Source: an uncultured bacterium
GTDB lineage: Bacteria; JAGOEH01
DNA: 64,000 nucleotides
Direction: 5' to 3'
NCBI GenBank assembly: GCA_964632485.1
Contig: CAZWDO010000011.1
Location: 1-64,000, forward strand
Position numbers and translations under genes: made by a program. Positions 1 through 15,966 of the stretch are shown piece by piece. Position 1 is the stretch's first letter; each line of letters opens with the position of its first letter. Below the pieces are notes generated by a model, which was given only the letters and a program-made list of their open reading frames with translations, ran no database searches and had not been told where the DNA came from.

Positions 1-530
1 GAATACTGCTGACCCTAACGGGCTAAAAAGTGGGGAATTCATGTGGCCCCTGACATGATAATTAATAAAACGGCTGAATTGCAAGGAACACTCCTTTTTA
101 ATAAGTTACGCTGGTCATGCCTAATAATAATATGCGTTTATTTTTTTTCAAAATGTAAATTTGCAAATATAAATGATTATTTATATCGAGCGCTTACCTA
201 TCTCTGCTGATCACATCAGTATTAAATATTCTAAGCTGAATATGCATACCAATGCGTCTAGCTGAACATAGAAAAACCCATAGGGGGTGCCCTGATAAAA
301 ATTGTGCAACAATTTTTATTAGGGATGATATGGTTATATTATTCAGATCATTGAAATTTAAATATACTACTATATGTACACATAAGGAATTTTGAACAAA
401 ATAATAAGATGAAGATAATTACTGAATAATGACTCTGAAGATTAAATATTGTTTTTTTTTTATTGTAATTTTATTTTTCTCATCATTTATTCTCCTTTTT
501 TCATGTTTTTTATGTCTTTTATCTTCTTTA

Positions 531-610
531 NNNNNNNNNNNNNNNNNNNNNNNNNNNNNNNNNNNNNNNNNNNNNNNNNNNNNNNNNNNNNNNNNNNNNN
601 NNNNNNNNNN
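531..610. other. Assembly gap (80 N)
   Basis: Run of N in the sequence; linkage across it is not guaranteed. Confidence 0.99.
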
Positions 611-976
611 ATCGGTAGCTAATAATAAGCTTTTACTGTTTAGCCCCCTTGGGGGGGGCTAACGTACACTCCTTAATGGCCTCCGGCCTCTTCTCTATTA
701 GCACCTATAATACTGTTAGTGTGTTTTCAAAAAGTGGTCATCCTTCATAGTAGGAAAATAATTTCTCATTGTATTACAACGGTTTAATTTTTTATGATTT
801 TCGATCACTTGTTATTATGCAAGTATTTATGGGAAATTTAAGCCGTTAAAATCATTATTTTTATCATTTTTTTAATTAAATTGAATATTTTTAGCTAATT
901 TTAATTAAATAATTAAATTAAACGATTGAATTAAATTGATTATTTTAATCGTTTAATTATTATAGAAAGGTTTTTT

Positions 977-1207
977 ATGGCCAGATTAATAAATCAAGAA
1001 AAAGTAAGAAATAATATTATTAAAAATTACACAAATACCATTGCAGATAAATATGCAAGGTATCTTGATTCAACACCAACGTTCTGCATATATTATTCAG
1101 GCGATTTAACTAACTCTCTGTCAGATGAGACGTTACAGAATACGGTAGAAATAGTTGGTTCAGAATCCCCGAAAAAATATGCTAAAATTAAATCGTTTAC
1201 ATTATGA
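977..1207 (+). pseudogene. Truncated phage-like protein fragment (resembles the N-terminus of a conserved AR9/PBS1-type jumbo-phage protein)
   Basis: RBS-like GAAAGG upstream. The motif RYLDSTPTFCIYY...D..L......G.ESPKKY.KI.SF.L is recalled from jumbo-phage proteins. The ORF stops after 76 aa. Similarity is from memory only. Confidence 0.35.
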
Positions 1208-1350
1208 AGTGCTTCCATCTATTCGCAAGCATGAAATTTATATGCCGGAAAAGCTGAGAAAATAATGACTGACCTGGACACAATTATTAAACCTTGTTAA
1301 AAAAATTGGATTATTTAAAATGGTTGAAGAAATAAAAAAGCAAAATAAAT

Positions 1351-1899
1351 ATGGGAGCTGATGAACGAATACAATGTATTGTGTTGTCCAACAATGATTT
1401 TATTTCAGAAGCTACTACTAGTAGCTTTAGAAAAATGGCGGATCAATTTTTTGTGTTCGGTAATGGTATCAATGTGTTTGAGGGTAGTGAAATCGAGATG
1501 TTGGAATTGAACGGGCAAATTTTATTTAATCCCTACGATGTGGGAAAAGCGTTGGATATTAAAAAACAAGGTGTGCGCAAAAACTGTTTAGCGATGGATT
1601 CAACACAGTGTATCATGTTGTATAACGACGATTTTATTTTAGAAGCTACTAATAGTAGCTTCCGAAAATTGAATAATCGCGGCGAATATTCCCTCACAGA
1701 ATCCGGCGTTTATCAATTTATTCTTCAATCTTATAGGCCCGTTACCATTGTGCTTAAAAATTGGGTAACCGATGATGAGTTGCCCACCATCCGTAGAACC
1801 GGGGAATATGTGAATAATACCAATCAATTCATTCAAGCATATTTTGGTTCATTGGAAAACAGTGTCAGAGGCCACATGAATTTTATAATGTATTTTTGA
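1351..1899 (+). CDS. Bro-N (BRO family / phage antirepressor-like) domain protein, possibly decaying
   Basis: FEGSEIEMLELNGQILFNPYDVGKALDI...LTESGVYQFILQS...NWVTDDELPTIRRTGEY is the Bro-N signature. Confidence 0.8.
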   Translation: MGADERIQCIVLSNNDFISEATTSSFRKMADQFFVFGNGINVFEGSEIEMLELNGQILFNPYDVGKALDIKKQGVRKNCLAMDSTQCIMLYNDDFILEATNSSFRKLNNRGEYSLTESGVYQFILQSYRPVTIVLKNWVTDDELPTIRRTGEYVNNTNQFIQAYFGSLENSVRGHMNFIMYF

Positions 1900-2086
1900 T
1901 ATTAAAATAATGGAAAAATATCAAAAGTTCCAGTTTGATGAATGGGATTAGTATTTCAAATCAGGGGGATTTGGAATATTTCCCGAAAAATAAAATCGAC
2001 AACAATATATATTATGGTCTTACGCTCGTACCCAGAATCTTTTTCTATATTAGGAAAATAGTGTTTCTCATTCGGTCCAGGATATA

Positions 2087-4450
2087 AACAAAGAATTAAA
2101 TCAATTTAATTCGAGCCAAAATCTGTTTTGTCCAATTATTGGTGTTATTTTATTTCCAGTGAATTTTAAAAATATTAACATATCAATAACGCATTAATTT
2201 TCATTGTATAATTCCGTTTATTAATTACTGAATATAATCCGCAACCGCTGTCATAAATTAAATATAATCCGGTATTTTAAATCTAAATGCCGTCTATCGC
2301 TTCATAAATGCGGTTTATGGCTCGTTCAGAATTTTATGTATAAGGGGACAAACATAAAAAGTCAAAAATGCCTTATCATTTAAATTTAAGCGGATTTCCG
2401 CTAAATCGGATTTCCGGATGGTAATTTTAAAATGTGTGTTGAATCATTAAATTTAATTGTTAGTATTTTCGATACCATAAAAAATATTGGAGAAGAAATC
2501 GGCAAATTTTAATTTAACACATTAAATTAAAACAATTAAATTAAAACACATAAATATTAAATCGATAACATACAATTAAATTTTGTCTTTTTCGTCTTCG
2601 TCTTAATATTCGTGGAATCGCATGTTATTAATGGTAACCAGGCATTAAATTTATTATTAACGTTATATTTTAATTTTATCGATAAATGGATTGAGTGTCT
2701 TCTCTTTAAATTTATACTTTTTATTTCTGACTACAACATATATATACACGAATAAAAATCAATTCCATCCGTTTTCGTCAGGGTCTCTAATATTCCTCAG
2801 CATAGATTTCATTGCCTGATTAAATACGAAAATTGGAGTGGATTATTAATAATGATTCAAAATATTCAAATTCATTCAAAATCGCTGAATTTTGATACTG
2901 AAAATATCAACAGTATTATTTAAGTATCCGGTATCGTTATATGCCAATTAATGAATAAGATTATTTTAAAACCCATATTTATTCATTATATATAAGGCTG
3001 TACGTTGATAGACGCCCATGAAAGAGCATATTCAGTTATCACCCCTGTTAATCGGGATTATTATATTTTCGATTTTTATTATTATGAATTTTTACATTGC
3101 CATAATCAGATACTAATAATATTTTTCGCTAACAATATATTATTGGTTATTCAAACCACAAATTTTGCATATTGGATTAAATGCCGATAAACACTCAGGA
3201 ATATAGCGACCTTGGAATATTAATTTTTCAGCTCAATAAATGCGAAAATTGATTAATGTAAAATGGAAATATTTATTTTCGGTAACATATATATAATGGA
3301 TTACAAGATCAGTATTTTATAAATTCAATTCTGAATATCTAAAATAAAAGAAGAAAATACGATGTTTTAAATTAATTTAAATTGGTAAAAGTAATTTATA
3401 ATTGAATTTTTAAATATTCAACAGTTCGAATATAATAGCTGCCGAAAGGATTATTTTTTATTTATCGATAACAGCAATATTAATGATAATAACCTCCAAT
3501 TATTTCGGCGCATCGACTAAACGTCCGTAAACACGAGGTTCGAGGAATATTTTTGAATTAAATCGGAGAATATTTAATAATCGAATTTCCCGGAATTAAA
3601 TGTTGAATTAATTTATCTAGAATCGATTTTATTTTTTTAATTTTATCATAACAGAATAATAATCATCGATGCCTTTCAGTATTGAATATGTCATAAACGT
3701 TGATGGAGACTGAATCTATGATTCTGTTCAGCATGTTATATAGGTCTGGAATTAGGATTTATTATAGCGTGAGAATTAGTAATTAATTAAAATAATACAT
3801 TTATAAAATTACTTTTTAATTTTGCTATAACAATACATTAATATTCAACAATCGCAAATGCTATATTGTGGTTCGAGCCGTCACGCTCAATATTGATTTG
3901 GTTTTATGCTGTTGGAGATTAAAAAAATAATGAAATCAAATTTAAATTGTCAATTCCAGCTCGCTGATCATTTTTGTAAATTGCCATAACACTATATTAA
4001 GCGACGTCCATAATGGCGGCTATTTCCAGTATCGATATTTTACCCCGGTACGGACGCACGCCATTATCGGGGAAAATAATTTTTTCACAGTCTGGCCTGT
4101 CCTGTACATTTTTTCAAATTCCAATAAACATATTATTAATGAATAAGGCCTGATATGCGCTCATTGACCAGGGAAACGAGAATAAATAATCGGGTTCAGC
4201 GAATATTTTCATCGTTAATGGTTGAAGCTTTTCAAAAATATATCAATTTTTTCTCTGAAAAAACTAACAAGATATTAAGAAGTGGAAGCCATGGGGTAAA
4301 TATGCCCGGAAAATAACATGGCCTTGTCCATTTTTTTTTCAACCCATGAACAATATAATAATGATAGGAGGCTCGCTTATGTTATAGCGATTTAATTTCT
4401 AACTGTTTTTGTTTTCCGTTAAAGGGTCGCCCGCTAGCTGGGGCCCTGTC
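2087..4450 (+). repeat. Degenerate tandem array of T-run + AACA-N6-TA motifs with unique hairpin-containing spacers
   Basis: Exact motif at 2087, 2177, 2545, 2567, 2735, 3131, 3284, 3650, 3829, 3988, 4127, 4266, 4349; near matches at 2909 and 3470; only one match seen on the - strand. Confidence 0.65.
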
Positions 4451-4492
4451 TTGATGAAGTGAACAATCGTAAACGAAAAGGTACTGATAACC

Positions 4493-4726
4493 ATGAAAAA
4501 ACTTGTCGATCAATACAGCCAGGATGTCGATCTGGTGACCACCTCCGAGCTGTCGCGCATGTTTAAAATCTCCAGGTCGAAAATCTATGAGCTGATCGAG
4601 GAGCATCAAATCCCGACCTTCCGCATCGGGAAGAAAATCATGCTCAACGCAAGCGATTGGACGTCGCGCGTTTTTGGCGGACAATATCAAATCAAGGAGG
4701 ATAATGACGAAATAACAGATTCATAA
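4493..4726 (+). CDS. Excisionase-family (HTH_17/AlpA-like) DNA-binding protein
   Basis: LVTTSELSRMFKISRSKIYELIEEHQIPTFRIGKKI is a winged-HTH excisionase pattern. Confidence 0.85.
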   Translation: MKKLVDQYSQDVDLVTTSELSRMFKISRSKIYELIEEHQIPTFRIGKKIMLNASDWTSRVFGGQYQIKEDNDEITDS

Positions 4727-4912
4727 TTTAGTTCCAGTATATTTCGAATATACAGAGTCTTTTTTTCAATTTAATATCTTTTTTCGTGAAACGATGAATA
4801 TCTAGATTATCCATCGCTTTAATTATTGGTTGGCGGGATGCTCGTCGGTAACCCTTCCGAGAAATCATCCCACCAACACAAATTAAAATGGAGAAATATA
4901 TATTAAAACAAT

Positions 4913-5315
4913 TGTTCGCGCGCGAACATTTTTTTTTAAATATTCTATCTCTATATTATTTATGTCATTACCGGTATTTTAAAAAGGTTAAAAAATGTTT
5001 TGCAATAAAAATAGGTAACTCATTGATAATGAATCGGTAATGAACCTCTATCCCGTTAAAAGTTAAAAAAGTTAAAAATGTTTGTATAATAGCCTCATAT
5101 ATTATCCATATTGAATTCTCATCTAAAATATATTAGAAGTTTCTTAATTTTTTAACTGAATCTGTATTAAGCTATTGGTTTTCAATGGGTAATCGATCTA
5201 TTTCGAACCAAAGTTTTTTTAACCATTTTTAACCTTTTCATCTATGAAAAATCCCCTTGAACGTAGTATTGATCGATGATTGAAGCAATATCACGCTCTC
5301 GTGAGATTTTTAACC
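4913..5315. other. Putative replication origin of the element (iterons plus palindrome)
   Basis: Perfect 16-bp palindrome TGTTCGCGCGCGAACA (4913-4928). GTTAAAA repeats at 4987, 5055, 5062, 5071 face inverted TTTTAAC copies near 5150, 5217, 5227, 5308. Lies directly upstream of the primase-helicase. Confidence 0.5.
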
Positions 5316-5367
5316 CGTTTTTTAAAAAAAACAACAATAACGTTAACCTTAAAAAGGATTAACACAC

Positions 5368-7632
5368 ATGAAATCAATATACCAACATGAGGCCATGACG
5401 CTGTTCGACCTTGGCCTGAAGCCGATTCCCTTGAATGGGAAAATCCCCTTCATTAGCGGATGGCAAACCATGGAGATTACAGCGGATGATGTGGAAACAT
5501 GGTCCACACAGTATCCCGATTGCAACATCGGTATTGTCTGCGGTCCATCCAGCGGCATTTTAGTCGTGGATTTTGACGATCCCGATGAAATGGCGCGTCT
5601 GAATACCGAAACCGGCATCAATCTGGATATCGTGACGCCGACTTGCATCACCAAGAAGGGTCTCCATAAATATTTCAAGTATCCGGCAATTGGAGCCACG
5701 TTTGGCAATCGCACCCATCTGAATGTGCAGGGCATCAAATTCAAGATTGATATTCGGGCGACTGGCGGCCAGGTGGTCGCGCCGCCCAGCATTCACCCCG
5801 AGGATACCACATTCCAGTATCATTGGGCGGAGGGGCTGGCATTCGGAGAGGTTCCGCTACAGGATTTACCAGATATGTTTATCGATGTATTGACGCAACC
5901 CTCGAAGCCGAAAATCACGAAGAAGAATAAAAAATCCACCGCTACCGCTACAGCGGCGACTTTACCGGCGCTTGATCCGCTTCCATCGTCACCCGTGGCC
6001 ATTGAGCCTATAGAGGCTACGACACAGGCAGTCGATTCACTTCCATCGATACCAGCGGAGGCCATCACACCCATGGCACCCTCGTCGCCCGCGATCGCCG
6101 ACGAAATTCCCGAAGGCGAACGCAACGATACACTCTTTCGCATGGCCTGCGCCTACCGCAACAAGGGATTGTCCAGCGAAGAAGCGCGAAATCTGATCGC
6201 TGCTGTCAATCAAACCCGCTGCCGCATTCCCTTGAATGACGAGGAATTGGACAAGGTGATGGGAAGCGCGTTTTCCTATGTGCATGAACATTTTGAGATG
6301 AGCGACCGCGGCTTCGCGCAAAAAGTCCTTGAGCAGTGTGGAAATCAGATTAAATATTGCATCGAGGACCATCATTGGTATATATGGAACGGCTTCATCT
6401 GGAGCCAGGACGCCAATGGGGAAATCAAGCGCATGGCAGACAGGGTGGCGGACCTGTTGAAAGCTAGCATCCAGGCGATGCCGGACAGCGATCCCATGAA
6501 AAAACCGTATCTCAAATATATTGCCGCAATGGGCAATACCCGAAAACGGGAAGATATGCTGCATTATTTGCAGTCATTACCCGGAGTCAGCGTTTCCAAC
6601 TCTCATTTTGATAAACGCAGTCATCTCTTGAATTGCCGCAATGGCGTCATCAATCTCCGTAGCGGCGAGTTGCTGGAATCGAACCCGGACTGGCTGTTGA
6701 CCCGGCAGATTGAAATCGAATACGATCCGACGGCGGCATGTCCGGTCTGGCTGGAATTTATGAAAACGATCACCCACGACGATATGGAGTTGATTGGGTA
6801 TTTGCAACGGGCCGCCGGATACTCCATAACCGGCGAGACGAACGAAGAAGTGGTGTTTTTTCTCTATGGCACGGGCTGCAATGGAAAATCGACCTTCATC
6901 AATGCGATCAATTCCGTATTGGGAAAATTCGCCAGGACCATGCCGTCAAAAACGCTGATGATAGTTCAAAACGATAACACAGCATCAAATGACATCGCCA
7001 TGCTCAAGGGCGTGCGCTTGGCGGCCACCACGGAACTGCCGGAAGGCAAGCGCTTCAATGAAGAATTGATCAAATCGCTGGCGTCGCAGGATATCATTTC
7101 CGCCCGCTATTTGTTCAAGGAATACTTTGAATTCAGCCCGACGCACAAATGGTGGATTTCCGGCAACCACAAACCCAAGATTGTCGGCCAGGACTACGGC
7201 ATCTGGCGCCGGTTGAAGCTAATCCCGTTTGAAATCACCATTTCTCCGGAAAAGCAAGACAAGAACCTCAAGGAAAAGCTGGAAGCCGAACTCCCGGGCA
7301 TCCTGCGCTGGATGGTCGAAGGCGCCGTTGAATGGTACCGCAATGGCTTGCGGGAACCGGCGAAAATCTCCGAAGCCGTTAAAGAATACCGCAATGAAAT
7401 GGATATTCTCGGCAATTTCATCGCGGAATGCTGCCAGACGGACTCCGACGCCATGATTCCGGTGAACAATCTTTACAATTTGTACAAGCAGTACTGCGAG
7501 ACGAACGGCCAAAGCACATTGGGCAAAAAGATGTTCAATTTGAAGATGGTGGAACGCGGATTCAAGAAAGATTTCGGAGCCAAAAACCAGGTTTGCTTGT
7601 TTGGCATCAAGGCGGCCGCTTCGCAAAAATAA
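5368..7632 (+). CDS. Bifunctional primase/polymerase (Prim-Pol) + PriCT + D5/P4-family SF3 helicase
   Basis: NIGIVCG..SGILVVDFD, GLHKYF, DIRATGGQVVAPPSIH (PrimPol); EGERNDTLF (PriCT); LLNCRNGVINL (D5_N); Walker A GTGCNGKS; WRRLKLIPF. Confidence 0.93.
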   Translation: MKSIYQHEAMTLFDLGLKPIPLNGKIPFISGWQTMEITADDVETWSTQYPDCNIGIVCGPSSGILVVDFDDPDEMARLNTETGINLDIVTPTCITKKGLHKYFKYPAIGATFGNRTHLNVQGIKFKIDIRATGGQVVAPPSIHPEDTTFQYHWAEGLAFGEVPLQDLPDMFIDVLTQPSKPKITKKNKKSTATATAATLPALDPLPSSPVAIEPIEATTQAVDSLPSIPAEAITPMAPSSPAIADEIPEGERNDTLFRMACAYRNKGLSSEEARNLIAAVNQTRCRIPLNDEELDKVMGSAFSYVHEHFEMSDRGFAQKVLEQCGNQIKYCIEDHHWYIWNGFIWSQDANGEIKRMADRVADLLKASIQAMPDSDPMKKPYLKYIAAMGNTRKREDMLHYLQSLPGVSVSNSHFDKRSHLLNCRNGVINLRSGELLESNPDWLLTRQIEIEYDPTAACPVWLEFMKTITHDDMELIGYLQRAAGYSITGETNEEVVFFLYGTGCNGKSTFINAINSVLGKFARTMPSKTLMIVQNDNTASNDIAMLKGVRLAATTELPEGKRFNEELIKSLASQDIISARYLFKEYFEFSPTHKWWISGNHKPKIVGQDYGIWRRLKLIPFEITISPEKQDKNLKEKLEAELPGILRWMVEGAVEWYRNGLREPAKISEAVKEYRNEMDILGNFIAECCQTDSDAMIPVNNLYNLYKQYCETNGQSTLGKKMFNLKMVERGFKKDFGAKNQVCLFGIKAAASQK

Positions 7633-7823
7633 TCCACCCGTGGCGGTGGAATGTAGGCATAGTTGACACCCATCACATCTTATCCTCAGCCAGGAGGCAC
7701 CTATGATCCGGGCTCCATAGCACGGAACTACTCCGTTTTGCTTCCGTTTTGTATTATCGGCACCTCGATGCGTAGAGACCGATAAAATTCAAAATTATTG
7801 CCATTTAAAAAAAGGATAATCAT

Positions 7824-8366
7824 ATGTATTATTTAGTCACCGATTATGCGCCCTGGATGATCCACAGGGAGCAATATTTGACAGTCTCGTTGATGACGTT
7901 GGATCAAATCACGTTTGCTGATGACTGCATCTTTGGATCGAAAATCGATTTCATGGAAATTTATGGAATGTTTATGGGCAATTGGATTATCGAAGACTCA
8001 CGCCCCAATTTTCGGCGAATTGTGGCTCCCCGTTTCCGTCCGCCACGGGGCAGGTATAATGATTTCTATGAACCCCAATCAGATTCGAAAATTCATGGAG
8101 AAATTGCGAAAGGGTCTAAGATTATCAGCGAATATCACGATCTTCCCATCGCGATAAACCTGACGCATAACCAAAGCCTATATGAAATTTCCGTTACCGT
8201 GGGTCTAAACACACCTGAGACCTTTCGTGTCGAACTGGTTATCCCCAAGGAATATTGGGTAAACTTCACAACTTATGACTATTGTAATTACATTCGGCTT
8301 GAAACGCATTCCACCTTATTATATGATGCTCCTGAAGAAACGAAGAAAAAGCCAAGCGATATTTAA
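7824..8366 (+). CDS. Hypothetical protein (element cargo)
   Basis: 180-aa ORF with AAGGA RBS between the replication and integration genes; no recognised motif. Confidence 0.6.
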   Translation: MYYLVTDYAPWMIHREQYLTVSLMTLDQITFADDCIFGSKIDFMEIYGMFMGNWIIEDSRPNFRRIVAPRFRPPRGRYNDFYEPQSDSKIHGEIAKGSKIISEYHDLPIAINLTHNQSLYEISVTVGLNTPETFRVELVIPKEYWVNFTTYDYCNYIRLETHSTLLYDAPEETKKKPSDI

Positions 8367-8632
8367 GGGTGAACCGCATCTATCGTATTCGTCAATTTTA
8401 AAAACCTATTATCATTAAATTATTTTAGATCGGAGAAATCCCATGTCCCTGATTCGGGCGCCGTAATGATACCGGCATGATTGAGCTAAACTCAGGGAAG
8501 GGTCAACACCATCATTATCAACATATAAATCCATTATAAACAAATATAGACCCTGAACCCGGAATGGCGAGAAACCATTCACCACTGTGTTATGAACGAT
8601 AGATTCCCAATCCCTATATACAAGGAAGCGAT

Positions 8633-8941
8633 ATGAAGAAGACCCTTCAAGAACGGATCGATGACTATCAGGCCAGAAAGGCCAATCCCAAGCGGAAATC
8701 CCAGAAAAAAACGGTGAAACCGGCTCAACCCGCGACCGGTGAAAACGCTTCAAACCTTGATAAAATGTATACAGTCAAGCAAGTCAAGAACTTGTTGCAC
8801 ATGTCCGACGAAACCGTGTATAAGCAGATTAGATCGGGAGAACTGGGTTATATTAAGATAAGTGAGAGACGGTATATAATCTCCGAATCCGATTTGAAGG
8901 AATACCTGGATGCTCATCGACACCATGCTATTGTCGCGTAG
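8633..8941 (+). CDS. Excisionase-family HTH_17 DNA-binding protein
   Basis: MYTVKQVKNLLHMSDETVYKQIRSGELGYIKISERRYIISESDLKEYL; AAGGA RBS. Confidence 0.88.
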   Translation: MKKTLQERIDDYQARKANPKRKSQKKTVKPAQPATGENASNLDKMYTVKQVKNLLHMSDETVYKQIRSGELGYIKISERRYIISESDLKEYLDAHRHHAIVA

Positions 8942-8952
8942 CTTTAGCTGGA

Positions 8953-8990
8953 GAAGGGATGGCTGGCTTCCATCCCTTCCCGTTTCGTTT
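8953..8990 (+). terminator. Rho-independent terminator after the excisionase
   Basis: GAAGGGATGG/CCATCCCTTC stem followed by a T-rich tract. Confidence 0.6.
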
Positions 8991-9009
8991 AATTTCAATA
9001 ACAATTGGC

Positions 9010-9038
9010 TTGACAATTCAACCAAAACCGCCTATAAT
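9010..9038 (+). promoter_or_regulatory. Consensus sigma70 promoter of the integrase
   Basis: TTGACA-17 bp-TATAAT, a perfect consensus. Confidence 0.8.
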
Positions 9039-9133
9039 ATAGATGAATGTCCACCCGGAGGGATTTACGGTCCCGCCGGTCGGAGCGGTCTGACACATTC
9101 CTTTACATAGGTGAAATGGAAAGGCTCCTTATT

Positions 9134-10243
9134 ATGAGCAAAAAAAAATTTCATTCGGACAATGTCTCGATTGTTCAAATCAACGGCCAGGATTGGTATC
9201 GGTTCGACCGGTACATCAATGGTGTTCGCATTCAGAAGCGGATCGGTCAGGTCGGCAAAATCACGGAGAAGGTCGCCAAAGAAACGGGAGAGCGTTTGTA
9301 TCGGGAATACATGGAGAAACCGGTACAAAAAGGCGCTCCGGCCAAAATAAAAGATTTGCGCTTCAATGAAGCCGTGGATCACTTCTTCGATGTTCTGGAA
9401 AAGCAGCCATACAAGATTACCGAAAAGACTCGCAAAATGGGTACTTATTATGTCCGCGATCATCGCAACAATGCCAAAAATCTGTTAAAACGGTTTGCTA
9501 GAAAATTGATTTGTCAAATCAAAAAGGACGATATTCTTGAATACATGTATCAACGCCTTTTAAATCATGCTCAATCGACCATCAATAAAGAAGTCGTATT
9601 TCTCAAGCTGCTCTGGAAGCTATTGGTTCGGGAAGGCTACCTGCAGGAAAACCTTATGAACCAGATCAAATTATCGAAACCGAGTAACAAGCGTACCGTA
9701 GTTTTCAACGAAGAAGAGTATAATCTTTTGTTGGAAAATTGCACTGGCGATAAATCCCATCTCACACCGATTCTGATCATAGCAGCCTTGACCGGGATGC
9801 GCAAGTCTGAATTGTTGAGTCTTCGATACGATCGGATTGATTTTGATCACAAAGTTGTGCATCTCGCAAAGACAAAGAGCGGTGAGCCTCAGGATGTCCA
9901 TTTGTGCGATACCGCGCTTGAGGAATTGGCGCGAATGAAGGCGAAGGCCCGGGATAAAAAAGGCTATGTCTTTCTATACAAAGGAAAGCCGATCAAGGAT
10001 ATCAAGACATCATTCGGTAAGTTGCTCAAAGCATGTGGCCTGGAAGATAAAGGGTATCGTTTCCACGACACCCGCAGCTTTTTCTGCACGGAATTGATCA
10101 AACACGGGGCGAATGTCGAAGCGGTTCGCAATCTGGCGCGCCATAAAGACGTCAATACAACCCTGCGCTATGTGCGAATGACAAAACCAGAGCTCAATAG
10201 TGCCGTCAATACGATGAACAACATTTTCAAGCCGAATCGATAA
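9134..10243 (+). CDS. int: Tyrosine recombinase / phage integrase (ORF open from 9047; likely start 9134)
   Basis: TGMRKSEL (R), KTKSG (K), FHDTR (HxxR), ARHK (H), TLRY (Y); adjacent to a tRNA. Confidence 0.95.
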   Translation: MSKKKFHSDNVSIVQINGQDWYRFDRYINGVRIQKRIGQVGKITEKVAKETGERLYREYMEKPVQKGAPAKIKDLRFNEAVDHFFDVLEKQPYKITEKTRKMGTYYVRDHRNNAKNLLKRFARKLICQIKKDDILEYMYQRLLNHAQSTINKEVVFLKLLWKLLVREGYLQENLMNQIKLSKPSNKRTVVFNEEEYNLLLENCTGDKSHLTPILIIAALTGMRKSELLSLRYDRIDFDHKVVHLAKTKSGEPQDVHLCDTALEELARMKAKARDKKGYVFLYKGKPIKDIKTSFGKLLKACGLEDKGYRFHDTRSFFCTELIKHGANVEAVRNLARHKDVNTTLRYVRMTKPELNSAVNTMNNIFKPNR

Positions 10244-10261
10244 ATAGCGTTGATCTGCAAA

Positions 10262-10290
10262 GTCATAGGAGGAGATTTTCCTCCTATGAC
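10262..10290 (+). terminator. Stem-loop after the integrase (probable terminator)
   Basis: GTCATAGGAGGA/TCCTCCTATGAC perfect 12-bp stem. Confidence 0.65.
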
Positions 10291-10516
10291 ATTATTTCAT
10301 TGAATAGTTGTCTAAAATCAAGCTTTGATCCCCAAAAAATCCCCATTGTATGTGGAGTATGTGGAATAATTGGTTATCGAAAACAAGGATAAACTGATTG
10401 AATGGCATACGGAAAACCCTAAAATTTAGCGTTTTGGTCAATATCGGATAAAACCTGACAAAAAGCCCCGTTTCGATGGGCTTTTAAATGTCTTAAGTCT
10501 ATGTTGTTCAGTTGGA

Positions 10517-10590
10517 TGCCCCTTAAAGGATTCGAACCTTCGGCCTACGGATTAGGAATCCGTTGCTCTATCCATCTGAGCTAAAGGGGC
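10517..10590 (-). tRNA. tRNA-Arg (anticodon CCT)
   Basis: Reverse complement GCCCCTTTAGCTCAGATGGATAGAGCAACGGATTCCTAATCCGT...GGTTCGAATCCTTTAAGGGGCA forms a cloverleaf. Confidence 0.97.
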
Positions 10591-10923
10591 TAAATTCCCG
10601 ATTAAGTCCAAAATTATAATCATACCATTGCTTATAGATACTGGTCTTGTTACACCTTATTGCACTTGAAATTCACCGCAATAGGGATTCGAATGAACTA
10701 CAGGATTTAATTAAATCATTTTTACAAATTTGTCAAGCTTTTTTTTAGTGTATCTGACTAATATATTCAATTCAGCAATCATTGCTGCGTCTGAGACGCA
10801 GCACTAAATACACCTGTTTTTTCATCCATTCTCCAAACTATTTCTAAAACATTTACCCATCAACTTCTACTTAAAATGTTCGTAGACCACCAACTTTGCT
10901 CCTGATATATTCTTGTGGTGATG

Positions 10924-11436
10924 CTAAATTTCCTTACTTTCATTACTCTCCGGATTCTTTCCCTTGCCGAAACTCCCTTTATGATAGTATTGGGGATACA
11001 AATTTTGACAGCATGTGGGGCACAGTCCATGAGTAAATTGCACATCTGTTAAATGCTGTGTGATATATTCCTCAACTTGATGCCAATACCCTTCATCATC
11101 GCGGATTTTTTTACAGTTTGAACAGATTGGCAAAAGTTTACTTAATGTGCTAATCTCTGACATTGCTTTTTCAAGGTCTTTATTTTGTTCATTAATTTTT
11201 TCATAAGCATCAATGAGTTTTTTTTCATAAAGATCACTAATCCTTGTTATCTTTATAGTATCCTTCAATAATTTCTCATATTGAACAATTAAATGCCGAA
11301 AATCAGCTTGGATTTTTTCAATATTGATTTCTGTGTTATTTAACGAGTTTTTTGCGTCATTTAGAATATTGAATTCGGATGAATAAATCAGATGAGTCGA
11401 ATCGCTTAATGTCTTTTTGGTTTTCATATTAATCAC
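10924..11436 (-). CDS. SiaD-like N-terminal coiled-coil fused to a C-terminal CxxC...HxxCxxC putative Zn-binding domain
   Basis: YEKLLKDTIKITRISD helix; LLPICSNCKKIRDDEGYW...FTHGLCPTC; last gene of the sia-like cassette. Confidence 0.7.
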   Translation of the reverse strand: MINMKTKKTLSDSTHLIYSSEFNILNDAKNSLNNTEINIEKIQADFRHLIVQYEKLLKDTIKITRISDLYEKKLIDAYEKINEQNKDLEKAMSEISTLSKLLPICSNCKKIRDDEGYWHQVEEYITQHLTDVQFTHGLCPTCCQNLYPQYYHKGSFGKGKNPESNESKEI

Positions 11437-12373
11437 CTTTTTCTAAAATAATCCGGATGGGCAAACCGATTTCATCACAAATCTCGGCGCCGGTTTCATA
11501 TATGATCTCGTCTCCCTCACGATAATACCAGTTGATGAATACTTCTCCCCCCATTAGATGATATCTTTTTAATATATGAAGCATATCGAGCAAACATTTA
11601 GAAGAACTGGTATTGATGAATGAAAAATGTAAATTAAGCGTAATGGCATTCCGTATTTGATGGATATAATTTTCAATCCATTTCATCAGTGGATTAAAAA
11701 ATTCAAAGGCATTGGGGGGATAAGAGGCTCCAGAAAGTTCTAATATTCCGCTATGAACGTTAAATTTTACTCCTAAAGTGGATTTTTGCGGTGAAATTGT
11801 CAAATCTGTACATACTATTTCTTTTTCAATTTTGACAGCCAATGACAGAAAATCCTGATTTTCATCAACCGATGTCAAATGATAATGGATAGGAAACCCT
11901 GATTTTCGAATGATTTCAATTAAACCGATACCCGCGCCATTACTTTCATTTTCTCTGGGTTCTCTTACTTTATCGCGATATGCTTTTTTTAGCGAGTCTT
12001 TATCCATTTGATTCAAATAATCAATATGTTCAACTAAGGTTTTTGATTTCAGTTTATGGATATAGTTCCCGGAAAGAATATTGTATTGTTGATCCAGTTC
12101 ACTCACTATAACGATACCGATTCCAGTGCTTTCTGTACCGAATTCATTTTTAATACGCTCAGCAGAGTGGTGATAGATATTTTGGACTAATTCGATAAAA
12201 ATTCCAAAAATTTTGCGCGCAATCATTACATTCGGCTCACTCTCGGAAATCTGATTATATATCATTTCCGCCATAGACTCCAGTATGGGATGAGAAATAA
12301 TCCCTTTGAAAGCCAAAACGATCTGTTTATCTGCCATGCGATTATATTGATCAAAAAGTTCATTCATTTTCAT
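11429..12373 (-). CDS. siaB: SiaB-family protein kinase (DUF6272) fused to a SiaC-family (DUF1987) domain
   Basis: IFIELVQNIYHHS and GAGIGLIEIIRKS (GHKL-like SiaB); C-terminal SGASYPPNAFEFF...FINTSSSK...INWYY (SiaC). Confidence 0.85.
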   Translation of the reverse strand: MKMNELFDQYNRMADKQIVLAFKGIISHPILESMAEMIYNQISESEPNVMIARKIFGIFIELVQNIYHHSAERIKNEFGTESTGIGIVIVSELDQQYNILSGNYIHKLKSKTLVEHIDYLNQMDKDSLKKAYRDKVREPRENESNGAGIGLIEIIRKSGFPIHYHLTSVDENQDFLSLAVKIEKEIVCTDLTISPQKSTLGVKFNVHSGILELSGASYPPNAFEFFNPLMKWIENYIHQIRNAITLNLHFSFINTSSSKCLLDMLHILKRYHLMGGEVFINWYYREGDEIIYETGAEICDEIGLPIRIILEKGD

Positions 12374-12404
12374 ATTATTGTCCTTTTCTTTTCAACCTGA
12401 AATA

Positions 12405-12782
12405 TTAATTAACACAAATTAGTTGAAATGAGAAAGTTGTATCTTCGCGGATTTCCTGCCCTGTTTCCAAAATGCTTTCATCATCATAAACATAATACCA
12501 ATTGATCGATACCGGACATCCAGACTGGAAATAATCTTCCAACAACAAAACAAGATCAATCATGCATTTGGTTGAGCTTGTGTTGAGGTAGGAAATACTG
12601 ATATTAAGCTCAATCGGTTTTTTTTTCTCGGTCATGTAACTTTTTAGCCAGCTCATCAGGGGATTAAAAAATTCAAAAGCGTTTTCCGGGTATGAAGAAC
12701 CGGAAAGTTCCAGGATACCAGTATCCCAATCAAAATTGATACCCAATGTCGATTTAGTTTTTTCCAAACTCAGATTATCCAT
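12405..12782 (-). CDS. siaC: SiaC-family regulatory phosphoprotein (DUF1987)
   Basis: LELSGSSYPENAFEFFNP, YLNTSSTK phosphoacceptor motif, INWYY. Confidence 0.9.
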   Translation of the reverse strand: MDNLSLEKTKSTLGINFDWDTGILELSGSSYPENAFEFFNPLMSWLKSYMTEKKKPIELNISISYLNTSSTKCMIDLVLLLEDYFQSGCPVSINWYYVYDDESILETGQEIREDTTFSFQLICVN

Positions 12783-12798
12783 ACCATCCTCCTAAAGT

Positions 12799-15700
12799 TT
12801 ATCGAAGCGCAACGCCGAAAATTGTAATATCATCTCGCTGTTCTTCTTGTTGTTGATGGGCTTTCAAAGCATGCAACAATTCCTTTTTCTGACTTTCCAA
12901 ATCGTATTCGGAAATATTCAATAACATATTTTTAAAACGAGATACGCCGAATTTACAGTCTTTATAATCTTGCTGATCAACAAATCCATCGGAAACCATG
13001 AAAAAAGTTTGAATAATATCCAGAGGTAGAATATGGGTAGTAAACATGCGTTTAGCTTCTTTTTGACGCCCGCCGATCGATTTTTGATCTCCTTTCAACT
13101 CAAACAATTTCTTGTCTGATACATAATACAGGGGACGTTTAGCGCCGGCAAAACTAAGATTTCCAGCTTCTTCATCGATCAAACACAGAGCAACATCCAT
13201 GCCATCCATGGTGTTTGCATCTATTTCATCCTGTTGCAGCACATAGCGTATGTAAGTGTGCATTTCTCCGAGTATCTGCGAAGGCTCCCAAATATTCTTC
13301 TCAACTACAATCTGATTTAATAAGGAATAGCCAATAATCGACATGAATGCGCCTGGAACACCGTGTCCCGTACAATCGACAACAGCTACAATTTTTTTCA
13401 TGTTTTTGCGATAGACCCAGTAAAAATCGCCGGATATGACGTCTTTAGGTAAATACACTATAAAAAAGCTATGCAAGATATCCTGAATATAATCCATAGT
13501 AGGCAGAATGGAGTTCTGAATTCGTTGAGCATAACGAATTCCAGCCATAATATTCTGATTTTTCTTTTCAATAATCCGATTTGCCAGAGAAATATTTTCT
13601 TTTTCCTGGTTCAAGGATGCCAGTGTGAGTTGCAAATCATGAGTTCTAATCTCGATAATCTGTTGCAATTCTAATTGACGATGGCGCATCTGTCTGATTC
13701 TAAATCCATAAAATCCAGACGCTAATATCAATAAAATAGAACCCATCAGCAAATAAAAGGGCCAGGTTTGATAAAATAGAGGTAATACTTTAAAATCCAG
13801 GCGAATACCCTCTGTATCCCAAATTCCGTCATGATTCATGGAAGTAACTTCAAACTGATAGTCTCCGGAAGGAAGATTTGAATAAAAAGCGGTACGTCGT
13901 GATTTAGCATGAACCCAGCGATCATCAAAACCCATAAGGCGGTACTTAAAGTAAATTTGTTCAGGCGTCTGAAAATGGATGGATGAGTAGTGAAATTCAA
14001 TATTTTTCTCATTGACTTTCCACTCGATTTTATTATTAACATCAAATGTCCGGCCATTAATCATGACGCGTTCAATCATGGTTTGAGGCGGTGGAGCGCT
14101 CTCCTTATTCGCTTGAATGGACATAACTCCTTTAAACGTGGGAAAATAAAATATCCCTTGAGAATCAAAGAATGCGGAGGGTTGGAATCCGCCGTTACAT
14201 TCTTCGTCTGACATACCTTCATTCAATCCATAATTCACGGGGTAGATATAATCCGTCTTACTCTGAACCAGATCGATTAAATCCGAACGCTCAATACACA
14301 TAATTCCTCGTTTGGAGCTGATCCAAAAGCGATGATTTTTTTCCAATATCCCCTGGATATAATCGTCAGGCAATCCCTGAGTAGTTGTAATGGTGTAAAA
14401 ATATCCATCCTTATAACAAGAAATTCCTCCTCCATCAGTGCCGATCCAAAGATAGTGATCTGCATCCTCATAGATCGATCTGATCACTCCATGAGCCAGA
14501 CCGTCAGTGGGTGTATAGTTATGATAATCATGATTTTTTAATGCAACCAATCCCCCACCGTTGGTTCCCACCCATAAAGTTCCCTGATGATCTTCCAGTA
14601 TTGCCGTGATGCCATTGTTAGCTTTTCCATCCCGATCGAGAAAACTGATAAAGTGGTTATTTTCATATTTCATCAAACCATCCTGGGTACCCAGCCAAAT
14701 TATATGCCGGCTATCTTCATAAATCACATTGTTGGTTAGACTTATCAATCCATCCCGGTAACCGAATTCCCGTAAATTTTGCTTTTCATAACAAAACAAC
14801 CCATTTCCCGCAGAGCCAATCCACAACCGATTGCGAGAATCTTTTAACACACAACAAACATTAATTTTCGCCGAAATTTTCGAAAAACTGCTTAACTGAT
14901 TCCGACGCAAATATTTTAGCCCTTGTCCGTTAGTCGCTATCCATATTATGCTATCCCCATCCAAAAACATTCCATTAATTATCGTCCCTTCCAATTCCTC
15001 AGAGAGACTTTTAACCTTACGATGGCGAATGCGTTTGAGTCCCCCTCCTTCCGAACCAATCCAAATACTTCCTTCCCGGTCTTCGAACAAAGATAAGATA
15101 CGCTGATTGGCAATGTTTTGTTTCTGTGTAAAATGGAAACTCTGTCCATGATCATATAGTAATAACCCTGAGGATTTGGTTCCGATCCAGTAGCGGCCGG
15201 ATTTATCGATCAACAAGCTGCTGATTGCTGAATGAGCCGAATAAAGCAATGTATAAATCCCATTTTGCAGGCGCCATAGTTCACCAGATTCCGTTCCAAT
15301 AATCCAATTTTCGGGTTTACCGGCGCAAGCGCTGATGGTATTAAATGGAGTTTGATCGCGGGCAAGAGAAATAATTGCTCCCGAACTCTCTATGCAAAAC
15401 AGTTGATGATTGGCATCGATAAAAAGAGGGATTCCAGTTGCCGTCATGGCAACAGCAGAAACCGTTTCGTAAAAATTGTCGTTGGGAAGGGTTACAGGTT
15501 TTAATTGATGGCGCCGATAAAGAGAAAATCCGTTGGACATGCTAATCATAATGCCGGAATCGTTTCGTACTCCCAGCCCTTTAATGAAATCAGAGGATAA
15601 TCCTTGATCGAGATTATAGCGGGTGAATTCTTCACCCTTTTTAATGATCAGCCCTCCCCCGTTCGTTCCAATCGCCAAATCTCCATCAAGATTAGTGATC

Positions 15701-15966
15701 AAGGTAGTTACTTCATTACTGACAAGTTCTTTAATATTGCGGCTATCATATTGATAAAAAGAAAAACCATCAAAACGCAATAACCCGGTAGAAACGCCAA
15801 CCCAAACATAGCCTTCCACGGTTTGAGTAATAGCGTTTATTGTCTTTTGGGGCAACCCATCTTCCCGATTCCAAATATCCAGCATATACTCCGAATTCAA
15901 TATTTGCGATTGATAAGCAGTTGTGAATGAACTTAAAACCAAAATCCAGCTAATAATTTTTAACAT
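12799..15966 (-). CDS. Membrane sensor PP2C/SpoIIE phosphatase (two-component regulator propeller repeats + Y_Y_Y + TM + SpoIIE); SiaA-like
   Basis: Repeated ED..G.LWIGT propeller blades; FKYRLMGFD...YSNLPSGDYQFEV (Y_Y_Y); SGDFYW, DCTGHGVPGA, DGMD, SDGFVDQ, QRDDIT. Confidence 0.92.
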   Translation of the reverse strand: MLKIISWILVLSSFTTAYQSQILNSEYMLDIWNREDGLPQKTINAITQTVEGYVWVGVSTGLLRFDGFSFYQYDSRNIKELVSNEVTTLITNLDGDLAIGTNGGGLIIKKGEEFTRYNLDQGLSSDFIKGLGVRNDSGIMISMSNGFSLYRRHQLKPVTLPNDNFYETVSAVAMTATGIPLFIDANHQLFCIESSGAIISLARDQTPFNTISACAGKPENWIIGTESGELWRLQNGIYTLLYSAHSAISSLLIDKSGRYWIGTKSSGLLLYDHGQSFHFTQKQNIANQRILSLFEDREGSIWIGSEGGGLKRIRHRKVKSLSEELEGTIINGMFLDGDSIIWIATNGQGLKYLRRNQLSSFSKISAKINVCCVLKDSRNRLWIGSAGNGLFCYEKQNLREFGYRDGLISLTNNVIYEDSRHIIWLGTQDGLMKYENNHFISFLDRDGKANNGITAILEDHQGTLWVGTNGGGLVALKNHDYHNYTPTDGLAHGVIRSIYEDADHYLWIGTDGGGISCYKDGYFYTITTTQGLPDDYIQGILEKNHRFWISSKRGIMCIERSDLIDLVQSKTDYIYPVNYGLNEGMSDEECNGGFQPSAFFDSQGIFYFPTFKGVMSIQANKESAPPPQTMIERVMINGRTFDVNNKIEWKVNEKNIEFHYSSIHFQTPEQIYFKYRLMGFDDRWVHAKSRRTAFYSNLPSGDYQFEVTSMNHDGIWDTEGIRLDFKVLPLFYQTWPFYLLMGSILLILASGFYGFRIRQMRHRQLELQQIIEIRTHDLQLTLASLNQEKENISLANRIIEKKNQNIMAGIRYAQRIQNSILPTMDYIQDILHSFFIVYLPKDVISGDFYWVYRKNMKKIVAVVDCTGHGVPGAFMSIIGYSLLNQIVVEKNIWEPSQILGEMHTYIRYVLQQDEIDANTMDGMDVALCLIDEEAGNLSFAGAKRPLYYVSDKKLFELKGDQKSIGGRQKEAKRMFTTHILPLDIIQTFFMVSDGFVDQQDYKDCKFGVSRFKNMLLNISEYDLESQKKELLHALKAHQQQEEQRDDITIFGVALR

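Follow-up and report, generated by a model that had tools for sequence, protein, structure and literature searches.

Whether a small tRNA-integrated element that adjoins part of a jumbo-phage virion gene exploits or resists such phages, or instead lies beside the debris of one, is the question raised by positions 611-10590 of contig CAZWDO010000011.1 (assembly GCA_964632485.1). We analyzed this region within a window of 64,000 nucleotides (positions 1-64,000, forward strand), for which an initial annotation had proposed a satellite core joined to captured or mimicked DNA of an AR9/PBS1-like jumbo phage, serving to parasitise or defend against it. We judge it probable that the locus is instead an ordinary element resembling PICMIs and tycheposons, lying next to eroded and recombination-scarred DNA derived from a phage or another mobile element.

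An integrative element at tRNA-Arg and an adjoining AT-rich arm

Domain searches confirmed the core as initially placed, with two excisionase-type genes, a PrimPol-D5 primase-helicase and an integrase at tRNA-Arg surrounding a putative origin region (Table 1). The primase-helicase carries a P4-family C-terminal domain (TIGR01613, E 1.8e-92), whereas family scans and an Atlas search of orf180 gave nothing informative and the Rfam scan matched the tRNA alone. Upstream of the primase-helicase gene, the AT-rich region combines a palindrome that has a GC core (4898-4943) with GGTTAAAAA-type repeats in both direct and inverted orientation (5058-5082 and 5216-5238), and is a candidate origin or promoter, more probably an origin. 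We consider it probable that the 4.4-10.5 kb segment is an intact, small, self-replicating integrative element, a view we hold jointly with that of the arm as eroded DNA. Its integrase would target the 3' end of tRNA-Arg(CCT), the integrase and HTH proteins would excise the element, and the primase-helicase would replicate the excised circle, starting at the repeats that precede the gene encoding it; since there are no transfer or capsid genes, spread would need a helper phage, vesicles or another element.

Table 1. Annotated features of the study region and the contig start
Feature	Position	Strand	Description
Contig start	1..55		Exact match to an interior segment of contig C66
AT-rich non-coding stretch	611..976	+	Upstream of stub
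Neck-gene stub, 76-codon ORF	977..1207	+	N-terminus of a ~400-aa jumbo-phage neck/virion structural protein
Bro-N antirepressor-type gene, 182 aa	1351..1899	+	Pfam PF02498, E 4.3e-7
20-nt sequence	1863..1882		3' end of Bro gene
Probable decayed reading frame	2054..3331	+	426 codons, no family match
14-nt tandem array	2509..2561		TTAAATTAAAACAA, 3.7 copies
53-codon ORF	4155..4316	+	No family; followed by a terminator-like hairpin, 4373-4390
xis1, HTH_17/excisionase-family, AlpA-like	4493..4726	+	HTH_17, E 2.7e-9
AT-rich intergenic region	4727..5367		Repeats, palindrome
PrimPol-D5 primase-helicase	5368..7632	+	PrimPol + PriCT_1 + D5_N + DUF5906 + Pox_D5
orf180, 180 aa	7824..8366	+	Matches no family
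xis2, second HTH_17/excisionase-family gene	8633..8941	+	Domain match
Tyrosine integrase	9047..10243	+	Phage_integrase
Integrase-proximal element end	10244..10516		Hairpin at about 10260-10292
tRNA-Arg(CCT), intact	10517..10590	-	Rfam 72.6 bits; 3' end toward integrase

The genome holds at least five related tRNA-targeting integrase elements, including the one studied here, with integrase paralogues adjoining tRNA-Arg(ACG), tRNA-Lys(CTT), tRNA-Met and tRNA-Thr. The last ~90 nt before 10516 are kept beside tRNA-Arg(ACG) on contig C17 and tRNA-Lys(CTT) on C28, and the xis1 protein is 77% identical to a paralogue on C41, where the similarity begins exactly at the xis1 start codon (4493). This sister element has a DnaG/DnaB-type replication module and a ~50-nt partial tRNA-Met, and its contig displays tandem accretion and degenerate remnants. 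Outside this genome, the two closest primases (62% and 55% identity) lie on contigs of 3.4 and 4.4 kb, a single-primase search of genome_contigs found no close relative, and integrase relatives in metagenome_contigs reached only 25-27%. An alignment search with the primase recovered 584 relatives, of which the 80 retained have 30-44% identity and come from many phyla; these relatives were of no use for comparing arms.

At its far side from the integrase the core joins an AT-rich arm of ~3.8 kb, in which GC content is 24-30% across most of 611-4000, as against 48-55% in the core and ~43% in host contigs. No N occurs within 611-10590, so that core and arm are uninterrupted as first described, and the N run ahead of 611 corresponds to no scaffold gap in the genome sequence. 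The window comprises the first 64 kb of its own contig, and the arm therefore extends to the contig end in this fragmented, metagenome-type bin of 66 contigs. Contig C66, which shares the opening 55 nt, holds remnants of an IS66-family transposase, and the assembly breaks at this IS66-type repeat; the 20-mer at the end of the Bro gene also matches an inverted copy at 36-55 and C66:1385-1404 at 19/20 bases.

The initial annotation had proposed looking for a second att copy upstream of the window, and had noted that an att site at 4400-5300 would exclude the arm from the element. Neither was found: the assembly contains no second att copy anywhere, and 1-10243, including 4400-5300, is free of partial tRNA-Arg copies at a minimum length of 10 nt. 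A repeat terminates the contig 4.4 kb past xis1, and the element may be larger, with more genes beyond the contig start. As no attL was found, the arm is only a putative part of the element. We read a 31-nt direct repeat (1023-1053 and 10610-10640, 77% identical) as chance, because the left copy is part of the stub's conserved coding region.

A truncated neck gene and the remainder of the arm

The phage-like fragment, the Bro-N gene and the motif arrays reported for the arm are all real, the arrays comprising 30-nt and 13-nt tandem units at 846-936 and the 14-nt array listed in Table 1. The fragment is the 5' end of a gene of the AR9 gp164 / phrog_3013 / phiKZ neck type, and homology ends at its stop codon. 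By tblastn all 21 of the 21 matching phage records were jumbo phages of 220-275 kb, with AR9/PBS1 the closest, at 40.8% identity across the full 76 residues (E 3e-14), and the best metagenomic relative reached 55% identity. Among 118 library representatives of the family at E <= 1e-3, 79 have 370-470 aa and most align via their own residues 1 to about 76; the stub is 17-19% of the full-length protein. A profile of the 79 full-length members matched the six-frame translated arm at 935-1204 only (profile positions 1-76); a full-length ~400-aa neck-fold protein is absent, and the rest of the protein beyond residue 76 occurs nowhere in the genome. The family folds like phiKZ neck chains (PDB 9xps; Foldseek E 1e-13). 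Modelling of the full-length relative closest to the stub places residue 76 among successive strands (35-42, 68-77, 87-149), from which the stub is predicted to break off inside a beta domain.

We then compared the locus with phage AR9 and found one significant tblastx match between positions 1-5400 and 250 kb of the phage genome, while the stub was the sole virion-specific match of 291 AR9 ORFs in the bacterial genome. The proposed capture of AR9/PBS1-like DNA thus holds for 228 nt, for which jumbo-phage virion genes are the only relatives detected, but not for the whole arm. Searches of 611-4450 at the DNA level gave no match in 50,697 phage or 72,556 plasmid records and only chance-level matches of 33-57 nt in 40 other genomes; an exact 24-mer from the arm had zero matches in viral_contigs and metagenome_contigs, and a search of viral_contigs for the neck family with a single protein returned nothing. 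The start of the stub is intact and its frame open, which counts against decay and means that it may be expressed. Nevertheless, we picture the stub as a fossil of illegitimate recombination with the DNA of a jumbo phage once inside the lineage, rather than as a working module.

The Bro gene encodes a Bro-N domain (PF02498, 30.9 bits; cut-off 25.6) and matches PHROG anti-repressor families with E values down to 2e-19. A 70-nt segment within the gene is duplicated (1368-1437 and 1602-1671), and a Pfam scan detected no C-terminal ANT/KilAC-type domain; PF03374 is carried by 6 of the 23 relatives listed, which are ~260 aa long and align to just 60-76% of the query. The gene thus appears rebuilt and C-terminally cut, with a probable loss of function, although the Bro-N domain itself is intact, a point against decay.

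Downstream, the 2054-3331 frame contains 16 TAA, zero TGA and zero TAG codons and displays weak three-base periodicity. A frame this free of TGA and TAG was reached by 0-3 of 1000 simulations, which implies some past constraint and also counts against a reading of decay. A code with TAA as sense opens this frame, yet we rejected it, since the Bro gene and the stub (258 codons together) have no in-frame TAA, variants from a second sample disrupt the frame, and it has no homologue. Recoding TGA as tryptophan or TAG as glutamine gave ORFs no longer than before. The AR9 early-promoter motif ATATATTAT has four occurrences, each of them on the plus strand, where 0.8 would be expected, a count of four being reached in 8 of 500 simulations (uncorrected); with a best 13-mer match of 12/13, estimated to be near chance level in such AT-rich DNA, we judged it not significant. 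A sigma-70 promoter scan was likewise uninformative. Overall the coding fraction of the arm is 0.23, compared to 0.74-1.0 in nine other AT-rich islands.

Variation between samples and competing readings

To follow the join and the arm across samples we relied on depths taken from assembled contigs rather than raw reads. In run X1, which is possibly the source sample and so not fully independent, an independently built contig spans 3796-4989 at 100% identity and depth is even over arm, core and flank (about 5-6). In a second sample the arm has a depth of 10-18 and the core 0-5, making the arm 2-4 times deeper, with a step near 4500-4770; the high-depth contigs stop near 4490-4535. The check for a chimeric join therefore came out clean in the likely source sample but not in the second. 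The depth of the second-sample arm exceeds that of the host flank too, so the arm is not simply chromosomal flank. Over 1255 nt it retains 98.6% identity, and it outnumbers the core; this is unexpected of dead DNA and may indicate that the arm is maintained or mobile. The same sample also carries 1-nt and 8-nt insertions within the 2054-3331 frame, a form in which 25 nt replace 2225-3788, and 21 listed arm substitutions that fall at codon positions 1, 2 and 3 in the numbers 3, 9 and 9. A joint from 927 to 10834 in run X3 was dropped (depth 2, with 21 letters on one side).

An artefact of assembly or binning at the arm-core join might be suspected from the position of the arm at a contig end, the sharp difference in composition and the fragmented bin, but is scarcely credible given the spanning X1 contig, the even X1 depth and the second-sample contigs that pass from the arm into xis1, to about 4535. 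It is unlikely, though less strained, that the arm lies outside the element altogether, either as old elements or a prophage piled at a tRNA-Arg hotspot or as a separate module recombining at xis1, their adjacency being incidental. The second-sample depth step with its contig ends, the onset of C41 similarity at 4493, and the accretion and remnants seen on C41 and described for tycheposon islands (available text of 10.1101/2020.12.28.424599) would all fit such an arrangement; however, 1-10243 lacks the partial tRNA-Arg that might be expected of an integrase family leaving ~50 nt on C41, and the second-sample arm exceeds the host flank in depth.

We regard it as very unlikely that the arm functions as cargo for a satellite of jumbo phages or a defence island. 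In that scenario the neck-gene promoter and 5' stub would sense infection or poison neck assembly, and Bro-N would derepress the element for excision, replication and either hitch-hiking or a phage block. Such cargo would accord with a core equal to the PICMI mandatory set (as given in the available part of PMC10803314), with a stub that begins at residue 1 and lies open on the same strand 144 nt upstream of Bro, with the exclusively jumbo-phage matches, and with the abundance and conservation of the arm in the second sample. Against it, the stub ends inside the predicted beta domain and was not seen to recur as a stand-alone gene: the ten short relatives checked either come from contigs only 0.7-4.1 kb long or lack a recorded contig, and none was present in 60 other genomes. 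The AACA-(6N)-TA late-promoter motif found at AR9 gp164 is missing upstream of the stub, though such motifs vary from phage to phage. Bro has undergone rearrangement and truncation, and ~77% of the arm is non-coding and indel-variable between samples. Pfam, PHROG and NCBIfam scans of all ORFs identified no terminase, capsid, packaging, neck-interference, helper-interference or defence family, and PADLOC on 10 ORFs returned two weak HTH matches to mad1 and nothing else. The suggested satellite core is therefore upheld, in that its genes are those of small integrative elements of a satellite-like kind, but it lacks a packaging or helper-interference gene, while parasitism of or defence against a jumbo phage finds little in a truncated stub, a near gene-free variable arm and a locus with no defence gene. 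A bolder version, which we hold to be highly improbable, would cast the locus as the first island, of satellite type or carrying a decoy, to be directed against a jumbo phage. Here the captured neck 5' end and its phage promoter would signal infection or poison neck assembly and would drive Bro-N, Bro-N would turn on excision and PrimPol replication, and the second-sample arm excess would represent the active form. Our literature search found no jumbo-phage satellite, and a 2026 jumbo-phage review uses the word 'satellite' zero times, so this version would matter if true; the evidence favours decay.

Collectively, the truncated stub, the rearranged Bro gene, the low coding density and the variability between samples point to an ordinary element beside eroded DNA. 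On this view the arm would contain a neck gene reduced to its opening 76 codons, a Bro-N gene that was rebuilt and cut at its C-terminal end, a dead 1.3-kb frame and scars related to IS elements. As a rare physical link between a phiKZ/AR9-type jumbo phage and its uncultured host, the stub could help assign hosts to metagenomic jumbo phages.

Relation to known integrative elements

The core represents a further member of the 'minimal' integrative elements built from an integrase, an AlpA-type regulator and a primase, in a poorly sampled lineage. PICIs carry a small terminase and capsid-morphogenesis genes, neither of which was found in the studied element. P4-like satellites combine an integrase at a tRNA with a primase-helicase bearing the P4-family C-terminal domain, as here, but also encode the capsid-size and helper-control genes psu, sid and delta and possess cos; no Psu, Sid or Delta-type genes or cos region were detected in the element.

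According to the available text on PICMIs (PMC10803314), their mandatory genes are an integrase, an AlpA-type regulator and a DUF5906 primase, and the element has this set (PF00589, PF12728 twice and PF19263) within 5.8 kb. The same source describes a minimal gene set without capsid-remodelling genes, extensive non-coding DNA in which small ORFs or pseudogenes occur, and an accessory locus distal to the integrase; the element is alike in each respect. PICMIs differ in integrating downstream of fis rather than at tRNA-Arg(CCT), in being bounded by short direct repeats where we found no att direct repeat, and in having Vibrionaceae hosts and a virulent helper phage, whereas the element has a non-Vibrionaceae host and is not known to have a helper phage; its two HTH_17 genes are a further difference (PMC10803314).

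Tycheposons are elements of marine cyanobacteria, with tandem accretion and degenerate remnants in islands, in the available text of their description (10.1101/2020.12.28.424599). That description includes a distal partial tRNA, no copy of which was found for this element in the window or the assembly, though one may lie past the repeat in which the contig ends; tycheposon cargo is niche-adaptive, whereas the corresponding side of the element carries decayed DNA. Within these limits the element is tycheposon-like in its tyrosine recombinase adjoining a full-length tRNA gene, in its excisionase and primase/helicase modules reassorted between elements, and in the presence of several elements together with degenerate remnants (partial tRNA, cut integrase) in one genome (10.1101/2020.12.28.424599).

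The integrative core and its relatives in the genome

The core genes lie where the initial annotation placed them, with Pfam, NCBIfam and tRNA-Arg calls in agreement, and its observation as described is confirmed. Both HTH_17 genes belong to the excisionase family by NCBIfam, which also assigns the primase C-terminus to 'phage/plasmid primase, P4 family'. The 640-nt gap 5' of the primase gene has 28% GC and contains a GC-cored palindrome together with direct and inverted GGTTAAAAA-type repeats, and we infer that this AT-rich repeat gap is the replication origin. The orf180 gene had no family match in Pfam, PHROG, NCBIfam or PADLOC scans. On the minus strand of the host flank a large Reg_prop/Y_Y_Y/SpoIIE phosphatase gene is followed by two genes of the SiaC family, one fused to DUF6272; the string looks like partner-switching-type regulation.

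Coordinates of the features discussed (contig C11 unless stated)
Feature	Position	Strand	Call	Source
Stub	977-1207		76-codon ORF	
Bro-N gene	1351-1899		Bro-N domain intact	Pfam, PHROG
TAA-only frame	2054-3331		426 codons, 16 TAA, zero TGA/TAG	
xis1	4493-4726		HTH_17	Pfam
Primase-helicase	5368-7632		Prim-Pol + PriCT_1 + D5_N + DUF5906 + Pox_D5	Pfam
orf180	7824-8366			
xis2	8633-8941		HTH_17 (second)	Pfam
Integrase	9047-10243		Phage_integrase	Pfam
tRNA-Arg(CCT)	10517-10590	minus	3' end toward integrase	
Host-flank genes	11429-15966	minus		
Sister element	C41, 10400-16661		xis1 homologue, DnaG-like primase, DnaB-like helicase, two unknown genes, HTH_17 gene	

Integrase paralogues adjoin tRNA-Arg(ACG) on C17 (78% identity), tRNA-Lys(CTT) on C28 (89%), tRNA-Met on C38 (45%) and tRNA-Thr on C27 (31%), and the integrase-to-tRNA spacer of ~90 nt is conserved across C11, C17 and C28. 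The integrase genes at the start of C17 and the end of C28 have an identical stretch in common, where both contigs break. The xis1 homologue of the C41 sister element, 103 nt upstream of which the contig ends, is 77% identical but is joined to DnaG-like and DnaB-like replication genes with no PrimPol, indicating that element modules reassort. After its HTH_17 gene, C41 carries a partial tRNA-Met(CAT) 3' half (~11549-11600) and then an N-terminally cut integrase; the att scar of this integrase family is thus a long partial tRNA, readily detectable by BLAST. A second att copy was nevertheless not recovered: no copy of 10481-10600 of at least 10 nt was found in 1-10243, and no partial tRNA-Arg(CCT) elsewhere in the assembly.

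A neck-gene fragment in a gene-poor arm

In tblastn searches the 76-aa stub matched 21 phage records, every one a jumbo phage (220-275 kb): AR9/PBS1 and kin, jumbo phages of Staphylococcus, a Listeria phage and phiR1-37. The top match has 40.8% identity across all 76 residues (E 3e-14), and in AR9 the stub aligns with gp164, a structural protein of the virion that is 395 aa long. An exhaustive HMMER search returned 118 representatives at E <= 1e-3, the best 443 aa long and 55% identical. These relatives are mostly ~400 aa (370-470 aa in 79/118), and most align by their own residues 1 to ~76. Ten short relatives that we inspected look like fragments, their contigs being 0.7-4.1 kb long or not recorded; four of six full-length relatives looked up have a cluster member on a 66-275 kb contig. 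The family is phrog_3013, and its profile matches phiKZ gp99 as well as a 'tail adaptor' chain of the PDB. When the closest relative was modelled with AlphaFold (pLDDT 75.6), Foldseek matched the model to phiKZ neck chains (E 1e-13) and, more weakly, to T4 gp13/gp14-type neck proteins (E 0.005-0.03). Judged by these profile and predicted-structure matches, the stub family is a neck protein. Residue 76 falls inside a beta-strand run of the predicted model (35-42, 68-77, 87-149), so the stub falls short of a complete domain.

When all 118 family members were compared with the genome by tblastn, 111 of 112 matches fell on the stub, the other being a weak match from a single 217-aa member near 85 kb of the same contig; other matches of 291 AR9 ORFs were to housekeeping genes (topoisomerase, PhoH, RNA polymerase, ligase, GroEL, ribonucleotide reductase). 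A profile of the 79 full-length members found nothing beyond the stub in the six-frame arm, and a tblastx comparison of 1-5400 with 250 kb of AR9 gave the stub match alone. The interpretation in the initial annotation is thus partly supported: capture of jumbo-phage DNA holds for one piece, the stub, and these searches gave no such likeness for the rest of the arm.

Within the Bro-N gene, the part encoding the first ~30 residues is repeated 234 nt further on (70 nt, 81% identity). The closest relatives of this gene do not exceed 52% identity and cover 60-76% of the query; they are mostly ~260 aa long, and several have an ANT domain. Those in phages are ordinary temperate-phage antirepressors, not jumbo-phage proteins. 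No ORF exceeds 66 codons in 1900-4150. Markov simulations reached a TGA/TAG-free run such as that of 2054-3331 in 0-3 of 1000 trials for each model order, and a weak three-base periodicity is present in the frame (chi-square 20.3, p 0.0025). We rejected a recoded, TAA-sense gene here because the Bro gene and stub have no in-frame TAA, second-sample variants break the frame, the 21 substitutions counted, from a listing with 189 further rows, split 3/9/9 over codon positions 1/2/3, and no Pfam or PHROG family matches; the frame is read as a dead AT-rich gene. Open frames of at least 80 aa cover 23% of the arm, against 74-100% of nine other AT-rich islands of the genome and 98% of the host flank, so what is unusual in the arm is its lack of genes, AT-richness alone being ordinary in this genome.

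Contig start, join and variation between samples

The contig (C11) is 124 kb long, with the window its first 64 kb, in a 4.45-Mb assembly of 66 contigs (98% complete; host contigs ~43% GC). The host lineage is poorly sampled, as among 60 other genomes compared one shares its family and one its order. Bases 1-55 recur unchanged inside C66, a contig of 1.5 kb that carries IS66-family transposase remnants (zf-IS66 and the end of DDE_Tnp_IS66), which places the assembly break at a repeat; for the N run upstream of 611, the genome sequence has no scaffold gap. A 20-nt inverted pair at 36-55 and 1863-1882 (19/20 bases) flanks 1.8 kb with the stub and Bro gene, the second copy forming the final codons of the latter, and may record a transposition or recombination event. 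At C66:1385-1514 the same 20-mer adjoins the IS66 remnant, followed by three GGGTCA...AATTCCCCA repeats. Separately, the bin of this genome includes a piece of a crAss-like phage, the 1.5-kb contig C65 (32% GC), on which the minus-strand locus L112 (530-1288) encodes a crAss-type tail ring protein 3/4 (PF25710, E 6.6e-24).

Depths and variants were taken from assembled contigs, not raw reads, of three metagenome runs. In X1, an aquatic metagenome in which 93% of the sampled words occur and which is possibly the source sample, an independently built 1194-nt contig spans 3796-4989 at 100% identity and contig depth is flat (arm 4.9-6.5, core mostly 4.6-7.5, host flank 5.3-5.4); the arm-core join shows no sign of a chimera in this run. 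X2 and X3 derive from a different, marine sample of 2012. There, contigs at least 90% alike span 1700-4600 at depth 10-18, against 0-5 for the core and 3.5-9.5 for the host flank, an arm depth 2-4 times that of either; a 1255-nt contig among them, over 2035-3287, matches the arm at 98.6% identity. The deeper arm contigs stop near 4490-4535, the start of xis1. In one variant form (depth 13-14) 25 nt stand in place of 2225-3788; further differences are insertions of 1 nt at 2152 and of 8 nt at 3314, and the sequence left of 2195 is also unlike that of the window. The depth step, contig ends and arm variants indicate that arm and core are separable in the population.

Weighing a satellite role against known systems

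The most likely reading, which we consider reasonably probable, is that an ordinary small element able to integrate and replicate lies beside eroded phage or mobile-element DNA scarred by recombination. A functional satellite of a jumbo phage, or a decoy island, would be notable if true. The scans gave no sign of defence or hijacking functions: PADLOC returned nothing but weak HTH matches for 10 ORFs, and Pfam, PHROGs and NCBIfam turned up no family of terminase, capsid, portal or interference proteins. The AR9 late-promoter motif, AACA-(6N)-TA (PMC5312081), is present upstream of gp164 and not upstream of the stub, a weak test as motifs differ between phages. We regard such a satellite or island as very improbable.

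No satellite of a jumbo phage was described in the literature found, and the word 'satellite' is absent from a 2026 review of jumbo phages. The element we favor, an ordinary integrative one, differs from P4 and PICI in having a core without their hallmark genes, as these are generally listed. The core has the genes of the PICMI model (PMC10803314), an integrase, AlpA (PF12728) and a DUF5906 primase, and resembles PICMI in the absence of capsid genes and in non-coding stretches with pseudogenes, but differs in not lying at fis and in having no mapped repeats. It resembles tycheposons (10.1101/2020.12.28.424599) in targeting a tRNA gene, in having modular genes for replication and excision, and in sharing its genome with degenerate remnants.
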